Source of the DNA: Callorhinchus milii
Taxonomy: Eukaryota
Assembly (NCBI RefSeq): GCF_018977255.1
Contig: NW_024704743.1
Coordinates: 6,822,001-6,886,000, forward strand
Direction: 5' to 3'
Length of the DNA: 64,000 bases
Shown here: positions 27,013-47,652 of the stretch, piece by piece
How positions within the stretch are numbered: position 1 is the stretch's first letter
Layout: each line of letters begins with the position of its first letter
Notes under the pieces: model-generated
What the model was told of the DNA's origin: nothing
What the model saw: the letters and a program-made list of their open reading frames with translations, nothing else
The model's database searches: none
Program-made: the position numbers and the translations under genes

Positions 27013-27131
27013 CTTCACCAGTGAATGAAGGCTTTTTTCACCAAACATATCCCGTAGGAAGGTCAGGTCCTCCTGGCTGTTCACATGTGGCTGCAGCTGG
27101 GTTGGCAAAGAGGCCAACAGTTCATACAGAC
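27013..27131 (-). CDS. MPP7: MPP7 coding exon, 119 nt ([40 protein letters not shown]), L27 domain 1
   Basis: ttcgcag|GTCTGTAT...GTGAAG|gtaatc. Phase 1 to phase 0 fits the neighbouring exons; nearly identical to remembered human [40 protein letters not shown]. Confidence 0.96.
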
Positions 27132-28026: not shown

Positions 28027-28803
28027 ACAACAATAACAACAAGATTACATTTGTATAGTGCCTTTCACGTCGGGAAGACGTCCCAGTGGGGTCTGGGGGG
28101 GGGGGGAAGAAGGGAGGGGAGGGGAGGGGAAGGAGGGTGGCCGGTGGCATTGTCGAAGAGGAGGGTCTTGAGGCGGGACTTGAAGGAGGCTAAGGAGGGG
28201 GCGAGGCGGAGTGATTGGGGGATGGAATTCCAGAGATTGGGGGCAGAGTGGATAAAGGCTCTCCTGCCAATGGTGGGGAGGGTGGGTCGGGGGACATGGA
28301 GCAGGCCGGAGCCGGCTGAGCGGAGGGAGCGGGCGGGTTGGTAGGGGGTTAGGAGGTCGCAGAGGTAGGGGGGGCGTGGCCATTGAGGGCTTTGTAGGTG
28401 AGGATCAGGATCTTGAACTGGATCCTCTGAAGGATTAGGGAACCAATGGAGTCGGGTGAGAATGGGGTAGATGGGGTCACGGAGTTTGGTGCGGGAGAGA
28501 ACACGGGCTGCAGAGTACTGGATTATCTGCAGCCTATGGAGGGAGGAGTTGGGAAGGCCGATAAGCAGGGAGTTGGCATAGTTGAGCCTGGAGGTGATGA
28601 AGGCATGAACAAGAGTTTCAGCGGCCTGAGGAGCGGTAGTGGCGGAGTCAGGCGATGTTATGTAGGTGAGGGAAGGTAGAGCGGGTCATGGCTTGGAAGT
28701 GGGGAAGAAAAGACAGTTGAGGATCAAACAAGACACCTAGGTTCCTGACTGGCTGGTGAGTTGAAGTGTGCAACCATGGAGGTTGTTGCTGCCAGAGCCT
28801 GAG
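28027..28803 (-). mobile_element. 5'-truncated L2 LINE
   Basis: Antisense NLGVLFDPQL, AFITSRLNYANSLL and FKILILTYKAL; (TTG)n tail at the left end. Confidence 0.92.
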
Positions 28804-29590: not shown

Positions 29591-30780
29591 CAACAACAAA
29601 ATTACATTTGTACAGCACCTTTCATGTCGGGAGGATGTATAAAAGTGCTGGGTAATCAGTGTTTCGGACCTGAGCTGGGGGTTGGGATCAGGGAGGATGC
29701 AGGGCGGGTGGGTGGGGGGGGGGGGGGAGAAGAAAGGAGGGTGACCGAAGGCACAACAACAACAACAAAACTACATTTATAGAGCGCCTTTCACGTTGGG
29801 AGGACGTCCCAGGGCACTGAACAGTCAGGGGTGAGGAACTGAGCATGAGGGAGGGGAGGCGTAGGGGTGAGGGAAGACAGAGAGGTGGGTGGGCGACTGA
29901 AGACATGATCGATGAGGAAGGTCTTGAGATCGTCCTTGAAGGAAGCAAGAGAGGAAGCGAGGCGAAGGGACTGTGGGATGGAGTTCCAGAGTGGGGGCAG
30001 AGAGGCTGAAAGCTCGGCCACCTATGGAAGGGCGCGAGACATGGAGCAGGCCGGAGTCCGCTGAACAGAGGGAGCGGCCAGGTTGGTAGGGAGTCAGCAG
30101 GTCAGAGAGGTAGGAGGGGACAAGGCCATGTGAGGACAAGGATCTTGAATTCAATCCTCTAAGGGATGGGGAGCCAGTGGAGTCGGGCGAGGGTGGGAGT
30201 GATGGGGTCACGGAACCTGGTGCGTGAGAGTACACGAGCTGCAGAGTTTTGGATGATCTGCAGCTTGTGAAGAGAAGAGTTGGGAAGGCCGATGAGGAAG
30301 GAGTTTCTGTAATCGAGCCTTGATGTGACGAATGCATGGGTGAGGGTTGCTGCAGCCTGAGGGTTGAGGCAGTGACGGAGTCTGGCAATGTTGCGCAGGT
30401 GGTGGTAGGCAGTGCCGGTCATTGGTGGATGTGGGGGAGAAAGGACAGTTCAGGGTCAAACAAGACACCCAGGTTCCTGACTGGCTTAGTGAGGTTGAGT
30501 GTGCAGCCGTGGAGGCTGATGCTGCCAGCGCCTGAGGTGCGGAGGCGCTGGCAAGAGCCGATCAGGAGGGCCTCGGTCTTGCTGACGTTCAGTTGGCACA
30601 GTCGAAGAGGAGGGCATTGAGGCAGGTCTTGAAGGAGGCAGGGAGGGGGTGAGGCGGAGGGACTGTGGGATGGATTTCCAGAGGGTTGGGGCAGAGTGGC
30701 AGACAGTGGGGTGAGCAAGGTGGGGGGCATGAAGCAGGCTGGAGCCCGCAGAGCAGAGGGTTAGGTTGGTTGGGGGTTAG
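29591..30780 (-). mobile_element. L2 3' fragment (outer), split by a second L2
   Basis: Flanked by ATTATAA direct repeats (29584-29590, 30781-30787); its two halves rejoin as gaccgaaggcaca|gtcgaagagg. Confidence 0.85.
29756..30594 (-). mobile_element. L2 LINE (inner), nested in another L2
   Basis: [13 protein letters not shown]...VRNLGVLFDPELSF...AFVTSRLDYRNS; flanked by GGCACA repeats (29750-29755, 30595-30600). Confidence 0.93.
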
Positions 30781-31020: not shown

Positions 31021-31979
31021 CAAAACCTTAATATATAAATACAGGTTGTTCATACTGAAGCATTTAAAAGGGAATTGGATAAATACTTGAGGGGAAAAAA
31101 ATTGTATGTGGAAAGAACAGGGAGATGAGAATAGAATAAAGAGTTCCAATAGGGAATCAAGCACTGACAGCGGTACACAAGACAGAATGCAAAATTCTGA
31201 AGGGTAATATTCTGTGATGAAACATGAACTTATACTTCATCGAACATCAAATAGAGTCCATTGTTGCACAATGTTGCTTTTGTTTTATCATTCCACTGCT
31301 CAGATATTATAGTTTTGCCCAGACAGTGCTGTTAAGCACTTTGGGACACCAGAAGAATAAAAAGAGGAGGTTGTGAGAATTTTTTTTACACATGGGGCTG
31401 GTGGAATACTTAATACTTACTACTGGCTGTTTGAGCCACAGTCACTCCGAGACGTGAAGAGCGCTATAATAATAATAATCCTTGCATTTGATATAGCGCC
31501 TTATCGAGCCTTTGAGACGTATCAAAGCATTTTACAGAATATATTATAACAAGAATAACAAAATTACATTTATATAGCGCCTTTCACATCGGGCGTAAGT
31601 CCCAAGGCGCTGGACAATCAGTGCTGGTTGTTTGTTTCATCCCTTAGTGAAAGGCATTATATATGAATGAAAATTTGTATTGTACGTTGTAATTTTAAAA
31701 AAATGTGGTCAGCTAGGTGTTCGACACACAAAGAAACCTATCACCACGCTTTGAGAGTATCCAAATAAATGGAGCCATTTAACCTCCGAAGAGACCCTGC
31801 TGATCTCCACCTACCCCCTAACTCCCATGGAAGATAAAATAATGAAAGGGATCTTGTCCTTCTGGGGTGCCCTGAAGGTCCAACACAAGGGCGCTATATA
31901 AATGCAAGTTGTTGTTCTGCGATGGTTCTCACCCCTTTTGTGTAACCCGCAAAGGTCGGTTACGCAAAGTGTACTAGGT

Positions 31980-32334
31980 ACCCTGTTTTCAGTTCTATCT
32001 CTGTAAGTGCAAATCCCTACTCTTGTGGAACTTCACTATTCAGAGCAACACAACGACAGATATTCTCAATTGGCTTACTCCCCATGCAATTGAGATGCTT
32101 TCCCCAGTGCCTTATCAGGCACTACCAGGCCACTGAGTCCAGCAACTGCATGTTTTGGGTATTTCCCTACCTCCCTCGTTAAGAATTTAAGAGACTTGAA
32201 GACACTACTTTCTTTAGCGCATTTTTAATTAATCAATTTGTCATTTGCACCTTTCCAGAACTCTCTGGGTGATATGGGATGTGCAAGTTATGTTTGATAT
32301 CCAAATTCTGGGTCACTGACTTTATAATGTCTGC
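31980..32334 (-). pseudogene. Integrase catalytic-core C-terminal fragment
   Basis: ADIIKSVTQNLDIKHNLHIPYHPESSGKVQMTN*LIKNALKK resembles the PYHPQSSGKVERxN-IK--L-K motif around the catalytic E of DDE integrases. Confidence 0.8.
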
Positions 32335-32745
32335 CTCTAATTTGTTAAGGTGTTCATTCGGACTATCGTCTGCCCAAAAAATGTCATCAACATAACAAGT
32401 TACCCTGGTATCCCAATCATGGTTTGCTGGGTGCACTCATTGAAAATAATAGCAGGGCTGTTTTTCCAGCCCTGGGACATTCTGTTCCATTCAAATTGCT
32501 GACCACAAAATGTAAATGCCGTTTTCCACCTATCCTCCTTTGCTAAAGGAACACTCCAGAACTCATTAGTTAAATCTGGGTTAGTCTTATGTTTCCCCTT
32601 CGGAAGATTATCTAAGTCTCCGCTTAAATGGGTACTTTGCCCTGCTGCCCTCTCAGTCACATTGTTTAACTGTATGAGATCGATTACCAATCGCCAAGAC
32701 CCGTTAGGTTTCCGAACCGGCAAAAGAGGTGAATTTGTTTCAGAT
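32335..32745 (-). pseudogene. Retroviral reverse transcriptase fragment (fingers/palm to YVDD)
   Basis: ORFs 32400..32723 and 32233..32436 give the RT motifs, with one frameshift between NSPA and YVDD. Confidence 0.9.
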
Positions 32746-33329
32746 TCACATTTGTAAAATTATCTGTCTTAACTTCTAATTACTTGATAATTTTTTAAAA
32801 ATCTGCAATTGAATTGCTTGGAAGAGAATAGGTTTATGTTTTTCCCTGCGTATCCTAACCTTGCACTGAATTAAACCATAATCTAATTTATGGATGGCCA
32901 TGCTGCATCTAAAACCCTGCAGCACTCTCCAGAGCGTGTCTGCATTTAATTGCGTACGAGCGACCTGCTTTTGTTTTCATCTCCATGCATGCTGCAAATG
33001 ATAACGTCATGGCGATCTGCCTTTCTCAAGAAATCACATCCTAGTATCACGTTCTCCGTGATTTCTTTTGGATTAACTGCCACTTTCATTTTTACAAATT
33101 CAGATTGCTCAACATCCTCAATCTCTGCTAAATGTTCATATATTTAGAGATGAGATCTCCCCCATCTCCCTGCACAATTAGTTTTTTCTGCTGCTCTTTA
33201 GGCTCCGCCCCCACTACACTGGTTTAAAACTGTTACCCACGTGTTATCCACTAATGCATTATACTTCTTACTGCATATAATGAAAGGAATGTGGCGACGA
33301 CTAATAAAAGTTTACACCCAACGAAGTAT

Positions 33330-35144
33330 TGCCTGTCCTAACAAGTACCAATAGGTGGCTGCTTGCGAATTGTATCGGTCCTGTTGATCAAACTCCCGGC
33401 TGAAAATAAAATCTCCTCAATAGGGTTGCCCCGCAGCAAAAAAATCCCATTTTTACTCCCTGTGCATGCAGGTGCTGAGATTACCCTTATGATCCTGCCA
33501 TCTATTGTTATCCTCAAAGAAATGTTCAGAATAATAAAAACGATAACGCTTTTCAGCGTGTTTGACAACTAATTCCCATTGCTCTGGCTGGAGGGGATTG
33601 TCGTCAACCACAACAAAATTACATGTATAGTGCGCCTTTCACGTCGGGAGGAGCAAGTACAAAACCTCTCCTCTCAGGCGGCATCACCATCACCATCAGA
33701 AACATTTCTCCCCAAAGCTCCTTAGAAAATAATTCAGTAATTTTGGAAGCAAGGACACTGGGGTGCCCCTTTGCTAACGCCCTGAACTGATCAATTTACT
33801 CCGGAAGCCCTTTCTCCCTTATGATGGTGCGTTTAATCTTGCTGAACGCCGTAACTAAATCATACCACTCAGGGTTTATTAAATCTTTCCATCTTCTATT
33901 AATTACGGATTGCAGATATATCTGCACAGCCACTTTATTAGGCAAAGTAACTAAATTCGCAAAGGAAATATTAGAAGTTAACTAATATCTATATCCTTGA
34001 TTTCAGGCAATGTGACTGTTAAAGATTTCAGCCCCAATATGCTTTCAACATGGGTATGAATGTCCACCTGCACTTCATTACCACTTGCCACATGGGTTTT
34101 TCCCCACATGCAATTAACACCCATTGTTAGACGATTTAACTGCTCAGTTATTAAAACTCTGTCCCTGAGCTCGTTTTATAACTCTTGTATTTGAGTCAGC
34201 TGCGCTGCCTCATTTATTTTTAATTGTCTTTTAATACTCCCCGCCCATGGAAGTTGATCAGTCAACCTCTTTACCTCTGCTTGAGTTTCCCTCAAGGATG
34301 ACTTAAGATTATTTACAATAGCCTCATATCTCTCAGTAATAATGAAATGTGGAGTCCTGTAGCTCAGTGGTTAGAGCACTTGCTTTGCAAGTGAGAGACC
34401 TGAGTTCAATTCCAGGCAGAGGGCGAAACCTTGGGCAAGTTTCCTTACTCCACACAGAGCCTAATAATAATCCCTCCAAAACCAAAAACAATAATAAATT
34501 GGTCATTTTCAATCTACGACTGTTTGTGGGACATTGCTGTGCGCAATTGGCTGCCGCGTTCGCCCACAAATATACAGTCAATTCACTTTACAGTCTATTC
34601 TGTGAAGCGCTTTGGGACGTCCTCCCGACGTGAAAAGCGCTATATCAAATGCAAGGATTATTATTATTATTATTATAATGTTGTGGCTCTGGCACTTTAG
34701 CTAGAGTCCTTGCTATTTCTCTGTATTTTTTGGTTAATTGTAACCCAGGTAACAGCACTGTTGCCAGAGAAAAAAATTGCTGCTCCCAATTGCCACTTTT
34801 AGAGGAAGACTGTTTAAATGCAGAATCGGATCTGCTCTTATCTTGGATCAGCCAACTATCAGTCGCTCCTCGGTTCCCTCACTCAGTCTTTCCCCAGGTC
34901 CTGAGCTGACTGAGTATTTTGAGAAATTTCCTTCCCAATTGCACTCTGTGACTTCCTCGCATTCAGTCTCCACACCGAACCCCTCACAATCCCTTTCGCT
35001 GTTGGTACGCCTAGCGTACATTGAATCAGAAATGCTCCTTGCGGCTAGTTTTAAAGTTTTTATCTCCTCAACCACCTCCATTCTGAGACTTTGAGTATCG
35101 AGATTCACATAGACAAAGTAATCTGTTTCCCCCATCGGAATCAT
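33330..35144 (-). pseudogene. gag-like remnant interrupted by a SINE (34349-34676) and a short L2 3' tail (about 33607-33653)
   Basis: Removing the SINE restores a frame ...KKYREIARTLAKVPEPQH|FIITERYEAIVNNLKSSLRETQAEVKRLTDQL...; position upstream of the protease fits gag; no CCHC knuckle seen. Confidence 0.6.
34349..34676 (+). mobile_element. Young tRNA-Ala-headed SINE inserted in the ERV gag region
   Basis: About 7 differences from the reverse complement of 24832-25161 by eye; AAT/AATGT duplication at the ends. Confidence 0.95.
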
Positions 35145-35585
35145 GTAGGTTCAATGTTTTTTTTGCACAAACTGGAACCTACATTGTCTTATTCAGGGGT
35201 TGCTATGTGTTGATTTAAATGGGCATTTCGCATTGTAGCATCGTTGCAACGCTATTTTTGTGGAAAGTCAAATTATACCCTTATACACTATTTCCTGTAC
35301 GATTAAGATGATTCTTTTAAATATTGAAATTTTGGTTTAGATATCTAGTATAGTTTAATTGTTGATGTCAAATGGAGGAGCATTGTTAGTGAGAATCACC
35401 AGTAACTGGGAATGTGTTCGATGGCTTTAAAACACTCAAGGGGTTTAGATAAGAAGAGTACAGTTTACATTATCCAAATCTAGAGAATGTGCTCGATATG
35501 AACATAATTATCTATTCATTCAAGATGGGCTTAAATTTTCGTGGTGGTTGTCAAGGGCAGGGTGTACTAGATTGCACTGGCATCA

Positions 35586-35913
35586 GTGGAGTCCTGTAGC
35601 TCAGTGGTTAGAGCACTCGCTTTGTAAGTGAGAGACCTGGGTTCAATTCCAGACAGGGCGAAACCTTGGGCAAGTTTCCTTACTCCACACGCCTAATAAT
35701 AATCCCTCCAAAACCCAAACAATAATAAATTGGTCATTTTCAATCTACGACTGTTTGTGGGACATTGCTGTGCGCAATTGGCTGCCGCGTTCGCCCACAG
35801 ATATACAGTCAATTCACTTTACAGTGTGTTCTGTGAAGCGCTTTGGGACGTCCTCCCGACGTGAAAAGCGCTATATCAAATGCAAGGATTATTATTATTA
35901 TTATTATTATTAT
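35586..35913 (+). mobile_element. Young tRNA-Ala-headed SINE (short subfamily)
   Basis: Same head, core and tail; possible ATCA target-site duplication. Confidence 0.95.
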
Positions 35914-37510
35914 CATGCTTTCTCATGCAATAACCCTTACTTTCTCCTTAGTTACAAGATTTCAGAACATTTATTCGGGTACATTGAACCACTTTTATAA
36001 ATAGACAGCACAAGAATGTTGTTCTTAGGAGGAACTGGCTTTCGGCGATTTGGAATTGTTTGCAAGTTTCCCTCTCCAGCCCCACACTCCTCCAGTACTC
36101 AAAACCATACATGTTAGCAGCTTGAAAACATGCCAGAAGTCAAATTAAGTGGAGTAAAGATTGCAGCATCCAAGGCCACATCATATTGGCCACGTACATT
36201 ATCATTGCACTGCGGCACTCACGGCTGACGTAGTACCTTCCACGTATATTGCATAATTTAATAATAATGTTGGGGACCACCGAGCAGCGAGAAGGGAGTT
36301 GGGGACGTTGACCAAAAGAATCAACGTAAAGTTTTTTTTAAAAAAAGCAGAGCGTTTTGAAGGCAGGGAGTGAGGAAGTGAAAAGTCAAGAAGTTAGTAA
36401 ATTAGTGCAGATCTCAATCCAAGGAGCAGCGTAGTGTGACTTCATGATACAGTGCAGAGAGAAATCAGTGCCAATTTTCACACATGAATTTTATTTTGGA
36501 ATGCCTGATGTAGCAGAATACAGTAAAACAGTCTAGCACTAGCAAAATTATTTACTGCAGGATGGTTTTCACCGTTCTGTCCGTGCCAGTTGCCTGCAGT
36601 ATGTAAACCACAGCACATATATTTATTAACACATTTGGTTCCAATAACTCACCTATCATAATCGCTGTCAATAAGAATCATTTTATTTAAAACTCTCTTC
36701 TGGACCCAATCAGTGGCATTTGATCACTCAACTATGCACTCCTGATTATACTGAGCAATGACAGGTCTGCCAATTTGTACAACAAGAAGCCAACAACACA
36801 AGCCAGACCACGGATCAGATAGAAAGACAAATGTATATTTAAAAAAATACAAACTGCTGGATGGATCCAGGACAGGTATTTGGATTGAAGCTTTTAATGT
36901 TTAAGGCAGAATCAGATATTCCATTTCTGCTCAGCAAAATGCACGTCTAAACAAAAAATAAAAGTGTGTATGTGTGTGGGTGTGTGTGGGGAGAGAGAGG
37001 GGCAGGCAGGGGTCTAAAGGATGGACTGTGCAGTCTATAGGATGGACAAGCCTGCGGAGTAGAGTGATGGATGCTTTTATGACTCCATAAAGAGAACATC
37101 AGTGAAAAGGAATGCTTCAGGGAACACTCTTAAAAAAATGTGACCCCAAGCTGCATCAGTGGAACGTTTCTTACCACAATATTTAAGGTTTTTCTGTGAT
37201 GTAAATTATCACCTCCCACCCCTTCCCCAAGTTGCCTGGTTTCTCTATTAGGCCAATGTACTGACAGCATTAAAAAAAAGCACAATTCTGAAGAACAGCA
37301 TCCTTTCCAAATGACGAATTTATTAAATAAACACACCGCAGCTTGGTGCACTCGGCTTTCATGTACACCCTTGATAGGAGGCACAAGACAAGAAAGAGGG
37401 AGACCACTAAGCCTGTCCCATGAGTTTATTATAGGCACATCTTTTAATTCCATTTCCCATCTTTTCGCCATATCCCTTCATACCCTTTTCTTCCAAGCAT
37501 CTAGATTGGA

Positions 37511-47615: not shown

Positions 47616-47652
47616 CTGCATCATTCGCAGAACCTGTTGATAATGCCGGCAT
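47616..47652 (-). CDS. MPP7: MPP7 first coding exon segment (MPALSTGSANDA-G, 37 nt)
   Basis: Minus strand ATG CCG GCA TTA TCA ACA GGT TCT GCG AAT GAT GCA G|gtaaag. Matches the remembered human MPP7 N-terminus MPALSTGSGSDTG. In-frame TGA 21 nt upstream of the ATG; A at -3. Confidence 0.95.

Follow-up and report, generated by a model that had tools for sequence, protein, structure and literature searches.

A retroviral remnant in an MPP7-like intron

The window analysed here is a stretch of 64,000 nucleotides (nt) from the cartilaginous fish Callorhinchus milii (contig NW_024704743.1, forward-strand positions 6,822,001 to 6,886,000). It contains a decayed retroviral remnant on the minus strand, between position 31918 and approximately 35010, and the analysis confirmed that this remnant is real. 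With moderate confidence, we read it as one copy of an ancient endogenous retrovirus (ERV) family with several subfamilies, which is placed on the chimaera branch within the foamy-like clade (CmiFLERV). This family would lack env, would have spread within the germ line, and would produce Gag-Pol by readthrough of a TAG codon. The original prediction, which had described a possibly novel foamy-like element from a cartilaginous fish on the basis of the letters alone, is partly supported and named the right kind of host.

Exons with motifs that we take to be those of human MPP7 lie on the minus strand on both sides of the element (47652, ~27130-27015, 6490, and ~2600). Since these exons bracket the element, it is intronic and in sense orientation to the host gene, as had been proposed. 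The predicted span (31704..35150) has to be trimmed: the element ends at 31918 instead of 31704, and similarity to sister copies stops at ~35008. The adjoining segment 35008-35144 has no match in any other locus compared, and neither a 5' long terminal repeat (LTR) nor a primer site was found in the intron.

The reverse transcriptase (RT) text quoted in the original prediction corresponds to an open reading frame (ORF) at 32400-32759 on the minus strand, which matches Pfam RVT_1 with an E value of 1.2e-12. The motif YVDDIFWADD follows in a different frame. Protease-like text upstream of RT and integrase-core text directly after YVDD are found in other frames. Searched against solved structures, the RT piece matched foamy protease-RT at 87-89 bits, followed by HIV-1 at 37 bits (among the best 60 of 206 matches). 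A protein search with the 119-aa RT piece returned no match at longer lengths.

Alignment to a sister copy that retains two LTRs (L035) shows how the window copy decayed. The gag-region, protease, and RT are 63-66% identical at the nucleotide level from ~35000 to 32331. At that point the alignment skips ~1.5 kb and passes from RT straight into the integrase core (32331-32210). A further jump joins this core to the last ~290 nt of the LTR, ending at 31918. The RT thumb, both RNase H domains, and the remainder of the integrase (IN) are deleted. Hence the predicted integrase remnant does follow RT, but amounts to only ~40 codons of the core. The terminal LTR piece accounts for 32 of the 42 rows of a genome search and is 79-87% identical to all 12 LTR loci fetched. 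This match, together with that to the end of the L035 LTR, rules out that 31918-32209 is an unrelated repeat. In each of two independent public runs, a single contig spans both deletion junctions (32086/7-32744/7), which are therefore not assembly errors. The contigs listed from a run of a second organism consist of repeat pieces only and are uninformative on an orthologous insertion. The window copy is a dead, 5'-truncated, twice internally deleted fossil with no function now. Its value lies in the family to which it leads.

Table 1. Features of the element and its surroundings (positions in the window)
Feature	Position	Strand	Remarks
gag-position gene remnant	33341..35008	-	5' end lost; many stops and frameshifts; short interspersed element (SINE) inside; 62-68% nt identity to sister copies, from primer site to protease
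tRNA-derived host SINE inside gag	34345..34680	+	97-99% identical to other SINE copies in the window
TAG at gag-protease junction, candidate readthrough stop	33338..33340	-	TAG in 10/13 copies; terminates ORF 33338-33568
Aspartic protease remnant	32990..33337	-	catalytic Asp codon at 33246-33248; degraded here, DTG in sister copies; window copy under the Pfam RVP cut-off
Reverse transcriptase, fingers/palm to just beyond YVDD, frameshifted	32332..32900	-	ORF, Pfam, structure matches, trees
Integrase core fragment (HIPYHPESSG), deletion-joined to RT	32210..32331	-	89% nt identity to the copy in L051
Last ~290 nt of 3' LTR (end ...CATCGCA), deletion-joined to IN	31918..32209	-	64% to end of L035 LTR; 79-87% to LTR loci
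Later insertion adjoining the element	35145..35927	.	437 nt 98% identical to G000:C5:34041630-34042066, plus SINE
MPP7-like coding exon downstream of the element	27013..27131	-	host context
MPP7-like first coding exon upstream of the element	47616..47652	-	host context

A possible ATCATG duplication flanks the insertion at 35145-35927. Since one contig of run X1 skips this segment, the insertion may be polymorphic, with additional 5' sequence carried along. Elsewhere, the window contains many copies of the tRNA-derived SINE, whose tail is common to what we take to be ends of CR1/L2-type long interspersed elements (28065-28685, 29825-30776, and others). These are ordinary host repeats.

The family and its position among retroviruses

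A genome search with the RT piece gave 150 scored matches from 501 candidates. About 15 of the scored matches are 53-82% identical in amino acid sequence, and all but one of these contain stops or short frames. We compared 25 assembled loci together with the window copy (26 in total). The search for intact copies that the original prediction had called for thus yielded elements with two LTRs (L035, L053, L043, and L046) and copies with a primer site, but no env was seen. The LTR of L035 is ~850 nt long, begins with TG and ends with CA, and its 3' copy is preceded by a purine tract. This LTR matches at least 46 rows in the genome (40 scored of 282 candidates). The primer site after the LTR is complementary to host tRNA-Lys(CTT) and is present in seven sister copies (L031, L032, L035, L053, L096, L097, and L034), not in the truncated window copy. 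Both ends could be parsed in eight of ten LTR loci fetched: two are 5' LTRs with a primer site and six are of the solo type. Among the latter, a 4-nt target duplication is perfect at two, matches at three of four nucleotides at one, and is missing at three; L035 itself matches at three of four. The border between polypurine tract and LTR reads AAATG in L035, L053, and L043, and ATATG in L033. The foamy motif GGGTG at this border (PMC5210030) was not seen.

The four LTR pairs differ by Kimura two-parameter distances of 0.062, 0.093, 0.155, and 0.169. At the rate of 2.2e-10 assumed in PMC4422223 these distances correspond to ages of 141-384 million years (My), and at a mammalian rate to 14-38 My. 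At either rate, the pairs are older than the ERVs dated in that paper (0.024 and 0.033).

Some loci encountered in this census merit separate mention. The L046 region (G000:C5:60468010-60477013, minus strand) carries two LTRs (79% identical), a Lys primer site, and a coiled-coil-rich remnant at the gag position; no env-sized frame was seen there. Lys primer sites with no tie to the family genes occur at L089 (G000:C8:18199002), L091 (C4:60791943), and L093 (C493:23341), and L093 is a different ERV with a 100% identical internal repeat.

RT trees were computed from 261 columns with 50 and 32 of 85 rows, after redundant, short, and long-branch rows had been dropped; the 32-row tree was calculated under LG+C20, and neither set included a verified loki or Odin sequence. 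A foamy-like clade that holds mammalian foamy viruses, Pleurodeles, and teleost sequences along with the family is supported at 99.3/100 (50 rows) and 100/99 (32 rows). Within it, the family is one RT clade (98.3/100; 99/97), and it joins C. milii XP_007889123 and L040 (94.6/98; 92/83). XP_007889123.1 is 100% identical to locus L046. The best C20 tree has the chondrichthyan branch splitting first, with the other two branches together at 86/78; two alternative placements within the foamy-like clade gave p values in the approximately unbiased test (p-AU) of 0.29 and 0.16. The prediction that the RT is foamy-like and lies outside Ty3/Gypsy is borne out by these trees. The suggested lokiretrovirus-like affinity is not supported, since in these trees, computed with no verified loki sequence, the RT nests with mammalian, salamander, and teleost foamy or foamy-like viruses.

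These trees speak directly to the idea that the family is a Ty3/Gypsy, Odin-like, or loki-like LTR retrotransposon with a merely similar RT, an idea that absence of env, a protease of A2 type, an integrase that falls with non-foamy sequences, and the dual RNase H and missing env of Odin elements (PMC9040795) might recommend, but that we consider highly improbable given the 100/99 nesting, a primer site of the same kind as that of AciFLERV, and rejection of the family's union with Gypsy alone (p-AU 0.028) or with Gypsy and the most basal of the groups that have dual RNase H (0.018).

Integrase and protease are less foamy-like. In an integrase tree from which 4 of 37 rows were dropped, including the window copy (45 residues), the integrases of five family copies group with L046 (92.8/98), not with mammalian foamy or teleost integrases. 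They fall with non-foamy sequences at 92/93 (not starred), and wider placement is weak. This position outside the foamy integrases is in line with the repeated replacement of IN reported in PMC7947760. Two of three in-frame protease pieces exceed the Pfam RVP cut-off of 20.7 bits (27.1 in L042 and 21.1 in L036), and Spuma_A9 matched none of the in-frame pieces tested. The teleost relatives P0145 and P0086 also have no A9 match. The protease thus appears from its sequence to be of the orthoretroviral type (A2) and not foamy A9, as the predicted non-foamy ending had implied. A second RNase H domain was detected in L035 (RNase_H, 26.1 bits, ~170 aa past the RT thumb), and the tether-length spacer before it aligns to an RT_RNaseH-like region of P0002.

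Two further sequences are of note here. The L040 region (G000:C12:~8784000-8786000, minus strand) represents a further foamy-like lineage, sister to the family, and unlike the window family its gag region shows a Cys-x3-Cys-x4-His-x4-Cys-like string. A predicted protein from Scyliorhinus torazame (P0263, scyTo_0007882) contains a PR/SET domain and an RT piece that shares 52% identity with feline foamy virus, and its RT falls among mammalian foamy viruses. P0263 could stem from contamination or from a faulty gene model, or it could represent a second foamy lineage in sharks.

The gag-pol junction and the apparent absence of env

The region at the gag position is present as predicted, but its homology to foamy Gag could not be shown. 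Searches with Pfam, ESM Atlas, and HHalign against foamy and other Gags revealed no homology. A single-sequence AlphaFold model of the region reached a mean predicted local distance difference test score (pLDDT) of 49.5, and the best hits of a fold search (Z 5.3) were death-fold domains. The proposed check of Gag by profile and structure prediction therefore produced no informative match, and given such uninformative tests the missing capsid match shows nothing. The region's position suggests its identity as gag. Neither a Cys-His box nor a GR box is present in the one natural C-terminal ORF looked at, that of L097, which agrees with the predicted lack of a Cys-His box.

Next, we consider how gag and pol are connected. 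Eighteen loci were aligned, and ten of the 13 copies that cover the site have a TAG ~30 codons before the catalytic Asp of the protease; the others have TAA, GAG, and TGG (one each). The nearest upstream (Gag) landmark is in the frame of this TAG in four of five copies, the nearest downstream landmark in seven of ten. In L041, L097, and the window copy, this frame contains no stop over more than 200 nt before the TAG. Although this frame evidence is noisy, we consider it likely that gag and pol lie in one frame, split by the TAG. Gag-Pol would then probably be made by readthrough.

Several observations weigh against this interpretation. A landmark farther upstream is in the TAG frame in only two of seven copies, and the protease landmark NALV in only 4 of 11; copy-specific gaps explain several of these out-of-frame landmarks, not demonstrably all. 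L097 has a second frame that is stop-free across the junction for 460 nt, and this frame ends in three copies at a common stop ~27 nt past the TAG. No significant RNA structure was found 3' of the TAG by single-copy folding of nine copies (z -2.6 to +0.4), leaving a readthrough stem or pseudoknot unsupported. As described, no homology was detected between the gag region and the Gags tested. Upstream, codon-position diversity across the junction gave no information.

The second open frame and the lack of a readthrough structure would also fit a foamy-like family in which Pol is made from a spliced message or by a frameshift out of the overlapping gag frame. The TAG together with the following G matches the consensus of a splice acceptor, foamy viruses do splice pol, and in the foamy-like ERVs of salamander and teleosts pol occupies a frame of its own (PMC5512871 supplement). 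Yet the AG is not preceded by a pyrimidine tract, and the overlap contains no canonical slippery heptamer. The sole nearby ATG, located about five codons ahead of the catalytic Asp, is absent from several copies, and in L036, L041, L097, and L051 the conserved protein frame continues into the TAG. We regard expression of Pol by splicing or frameshift in this family as unlikely.

The second unusual trait is the lack of space for env. From the end of IN to the 3' LTR there are ~490 nt in L035, ~550 in L053, ~510 in L031, ~710 in L043, and ~590 in L033, and all sense frames in these five gaps are shorter than 85 aa. The gap is an estimated ~570 nt in L045 and ~1170 nt in L046. Hence all seven measurable copies have no room for env; the other 19 of the 26 loci are without a needed landmark (L037, for example, was not counted because it lacks the integrase end). 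Searches of the 26 loci with six foamy Env ORFs and one other Env gave no match, and a genome-wide search with PF03408 gave a single sub-threshold match, away from the family. Because similarity searches for env are weak for fish elements, the argument is one of space, and the short gap recurs in three LTR types (L035/L053/L031, L043/L033, and L046). One homologous 3' untranslated stretch, 79-84% identical, is common to L035, L053, L031, L039, and L041.

These data also bear on the alternative that the family is an ordinary infectious foamy-like virus whose surviving copies happen to be deleted in env and were helped by a complete virus that was not found or not fixed. Other complete foamy-like ERV genomes do carry env (PMC5210030, PMC5512871), the family copies bear many independent deletions, and ~1.2 kb of L046 is unexplained. 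An env-bearing helper may have existed, since only seven of the 26 loci allowed the env test and the Env of fish foamy-like elements is often undetectable by similarity (PMC5210030); this too counts against an env-less family. Against this alternative stand the recurrence of a short gap across the LTR types, the shared 3' stretch, and the PF03408 result, and we judge it improbable.

As read from the sister copies, the full element was ~7 kb long and was arranged as LTR, tRNA-Lys primer site, gag, TAG, protease/RT/tether/RNase H/integrase, 0.5-0.7 kb without env, polypurine tract, and LTR. The reading that we prefer, an env-less family with Gag-Pol readthrough, implies the following life history. 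An infectious foamy-like virus may have been the ancestor, and after loss of env its descendants would have multiplied inside germ-line cells in the manner of retrotransposons. An LTR-driven transcript would give Gag and, by readthrough of the TAG, a minor amount of Gag-Pol. Reverse transcription would be primed by tRNA-Lys, and integration would leave a 4-nt duplication. Later recombination between LTRs would have produced many solo LTRs, and decay would have left fragments such as the window copy.

Known lineage, apparently undescribed architecture, and comparison with related elements

By textbook definition, foamy viruses differ from other retroviruses in expressing Pol separately and in depending strictly on Env. 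If a deep foamy-like branch had gag and pol split by an in-frame stop, together with an ordinary retroviral protease and no env, these traits would be younger than the foamy-type RT, and an env-less readthrough family would suggest that separate expression of foamy Pol arose later. A more far-reaching scenario, which we offer as tentative and rather doubtful, is that the chondrichthyan branch splits first and keeps the ancestral state, in which RT, primer, and integration footprint are of the foamy type but occur with an A2 protease and readthrough of Gag-Pol. The A9 protease and separate Pol would have been acquired later within the clade, and the branch would have lived in the germ line as a retrotransposon without env, its insertions perhaps dating back 140-380 My if the slow shark rate applies.

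The lineage as such is known, since the RT groups with what appears to be a published C. milii foamy-like ERV; the novelty that the original prediction had made conditional on phylogeny does not hold at this level. Aiewsakun and Katzourakis (2017, PMC5512871) list five C. milii foamy-like RTs (CmiFLERV), of which only pol was detected. These come from the same host and appear to fall in the same RT clade as the family. By pairing of accessions, CmiFLERV XM_007890932.1 appears to be the mRNA of XP_007889123.1 and thus L046. The match lengths of 534 nt (L031) and 441 nt (L040) equal two lengths listed for CmiFLERV; this agreement is circumstantial, and members of the family are probably among the five sequences. 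The window RT itself is only 61% identical to L046 in nucleotides and 42-45% in amino acids. In contrast to pol, the LTRs, primer site, gag region, TAG junction, and missing env are not described in the available parts of PMC5512871. We found no description of LTRs, missing env, or readthrough for shark foamy-like ERVs in the literature covered, where the term CmiFLERV occurs in full text only in PMC5512871. Repbase, Dfam, and subscription journals lay outside this search, and therefore the family may be named there. Apparently, its architecture is an undescribed variant of a known foamy-like lineage: env-less, with an A2 protease and probable readthrough. It would complete the picture of a lineage from which only pol had been known.

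With the Spumaretrovirinae (PFV, SFV, FFV, BFV, and EFV) the family shares the RT clade, the tRNA-Lys primer, the 4-nt duplication, dual RNase H, and, in the one C-terminal Gag ORF looked at, absence of a Cys-His box. In contrast to its A2 protease, these viruses have A9; they express Pol separately, from a pol gene with its own start in another frame (PMC8278194), whereas pol of the family apparently continues the gag frame behind a TAG. Furthermore, the family integrase does not fall within the clade of foamy integrases, neither env nor accessory genes were seen in the loci compared, and the foamy border motif GGGTG is replaced by AAATG or ATATG. The family is related to foamy viruses by its RT and fails several defining tests for Spumaretrovirinae proper. 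AciFLERV, AliFLERV, and NviFLERV belong to the same RT clade, most have a Lys primer site and 4-nt duplications, and they too have no Cys-His box (PMC5512871, PMC5210030). Unlike the family, they carry env and in many cases accessory genes, reaching up to 17 kb, and their pol is annotated in another frame than gag, as documented for salamander and cichlid elements in the supplement of PMC5512871.

Outside the foamy-like clade, Odin elements resemble the family in having gag-pol, dual RNase H, and no env (PMC9040795). However, the RTs of Odin elements and lokiretroviruses lie outside all canonical retroviruses (PMC9040795, PMC7947760), whereas that of the family lies inside the foamy-like clade. 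Metaviridae (Ty3/Gypsy) differ by a single RNase H, in addition to the RT placement. C. milii also contains a young multi-copy element on small contigs (L050, L081-L083; G000:C466, C909, C771, C548; also C364, C556, C1182). Its long open gag-pol frames reach 2200 aa and include dual RNase H, a ~250-aa insert separates protease from RT, and pol is followed by env-like frames. In the RT tree, it joins an eel protein, and both fall outside every other retrovirus sampled (the rest are united at 97/92), as lokiretroviruses do; we presume that it could instead belong to a ZFERV/SSSV-like lineage. It showed no match to an F protein, the kind of Env that marks lokiretroviruses, and a genome search with PF00523 gave none, controls included. 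Lokiretroviruses are not listed for cartilaginous fish in the available part of PMC7947760.

Parallels in organization come from other retroviral classes. Gamma- and epsilon-type elements as well as those of XtERV-S type use the one-frame layout; in XtERV-S, a suppressible stop separates gag from pol within a single frame, and ERV-L (class III) is env-less like the family (PMC8278194). In contrast, class III elements form a separate RT clade (the bird class III-like group), and XtERV-S uses a different primer tRNA. By analogy, the family may be thought of as a foamy-like lineage that would work like an env-less class III element.

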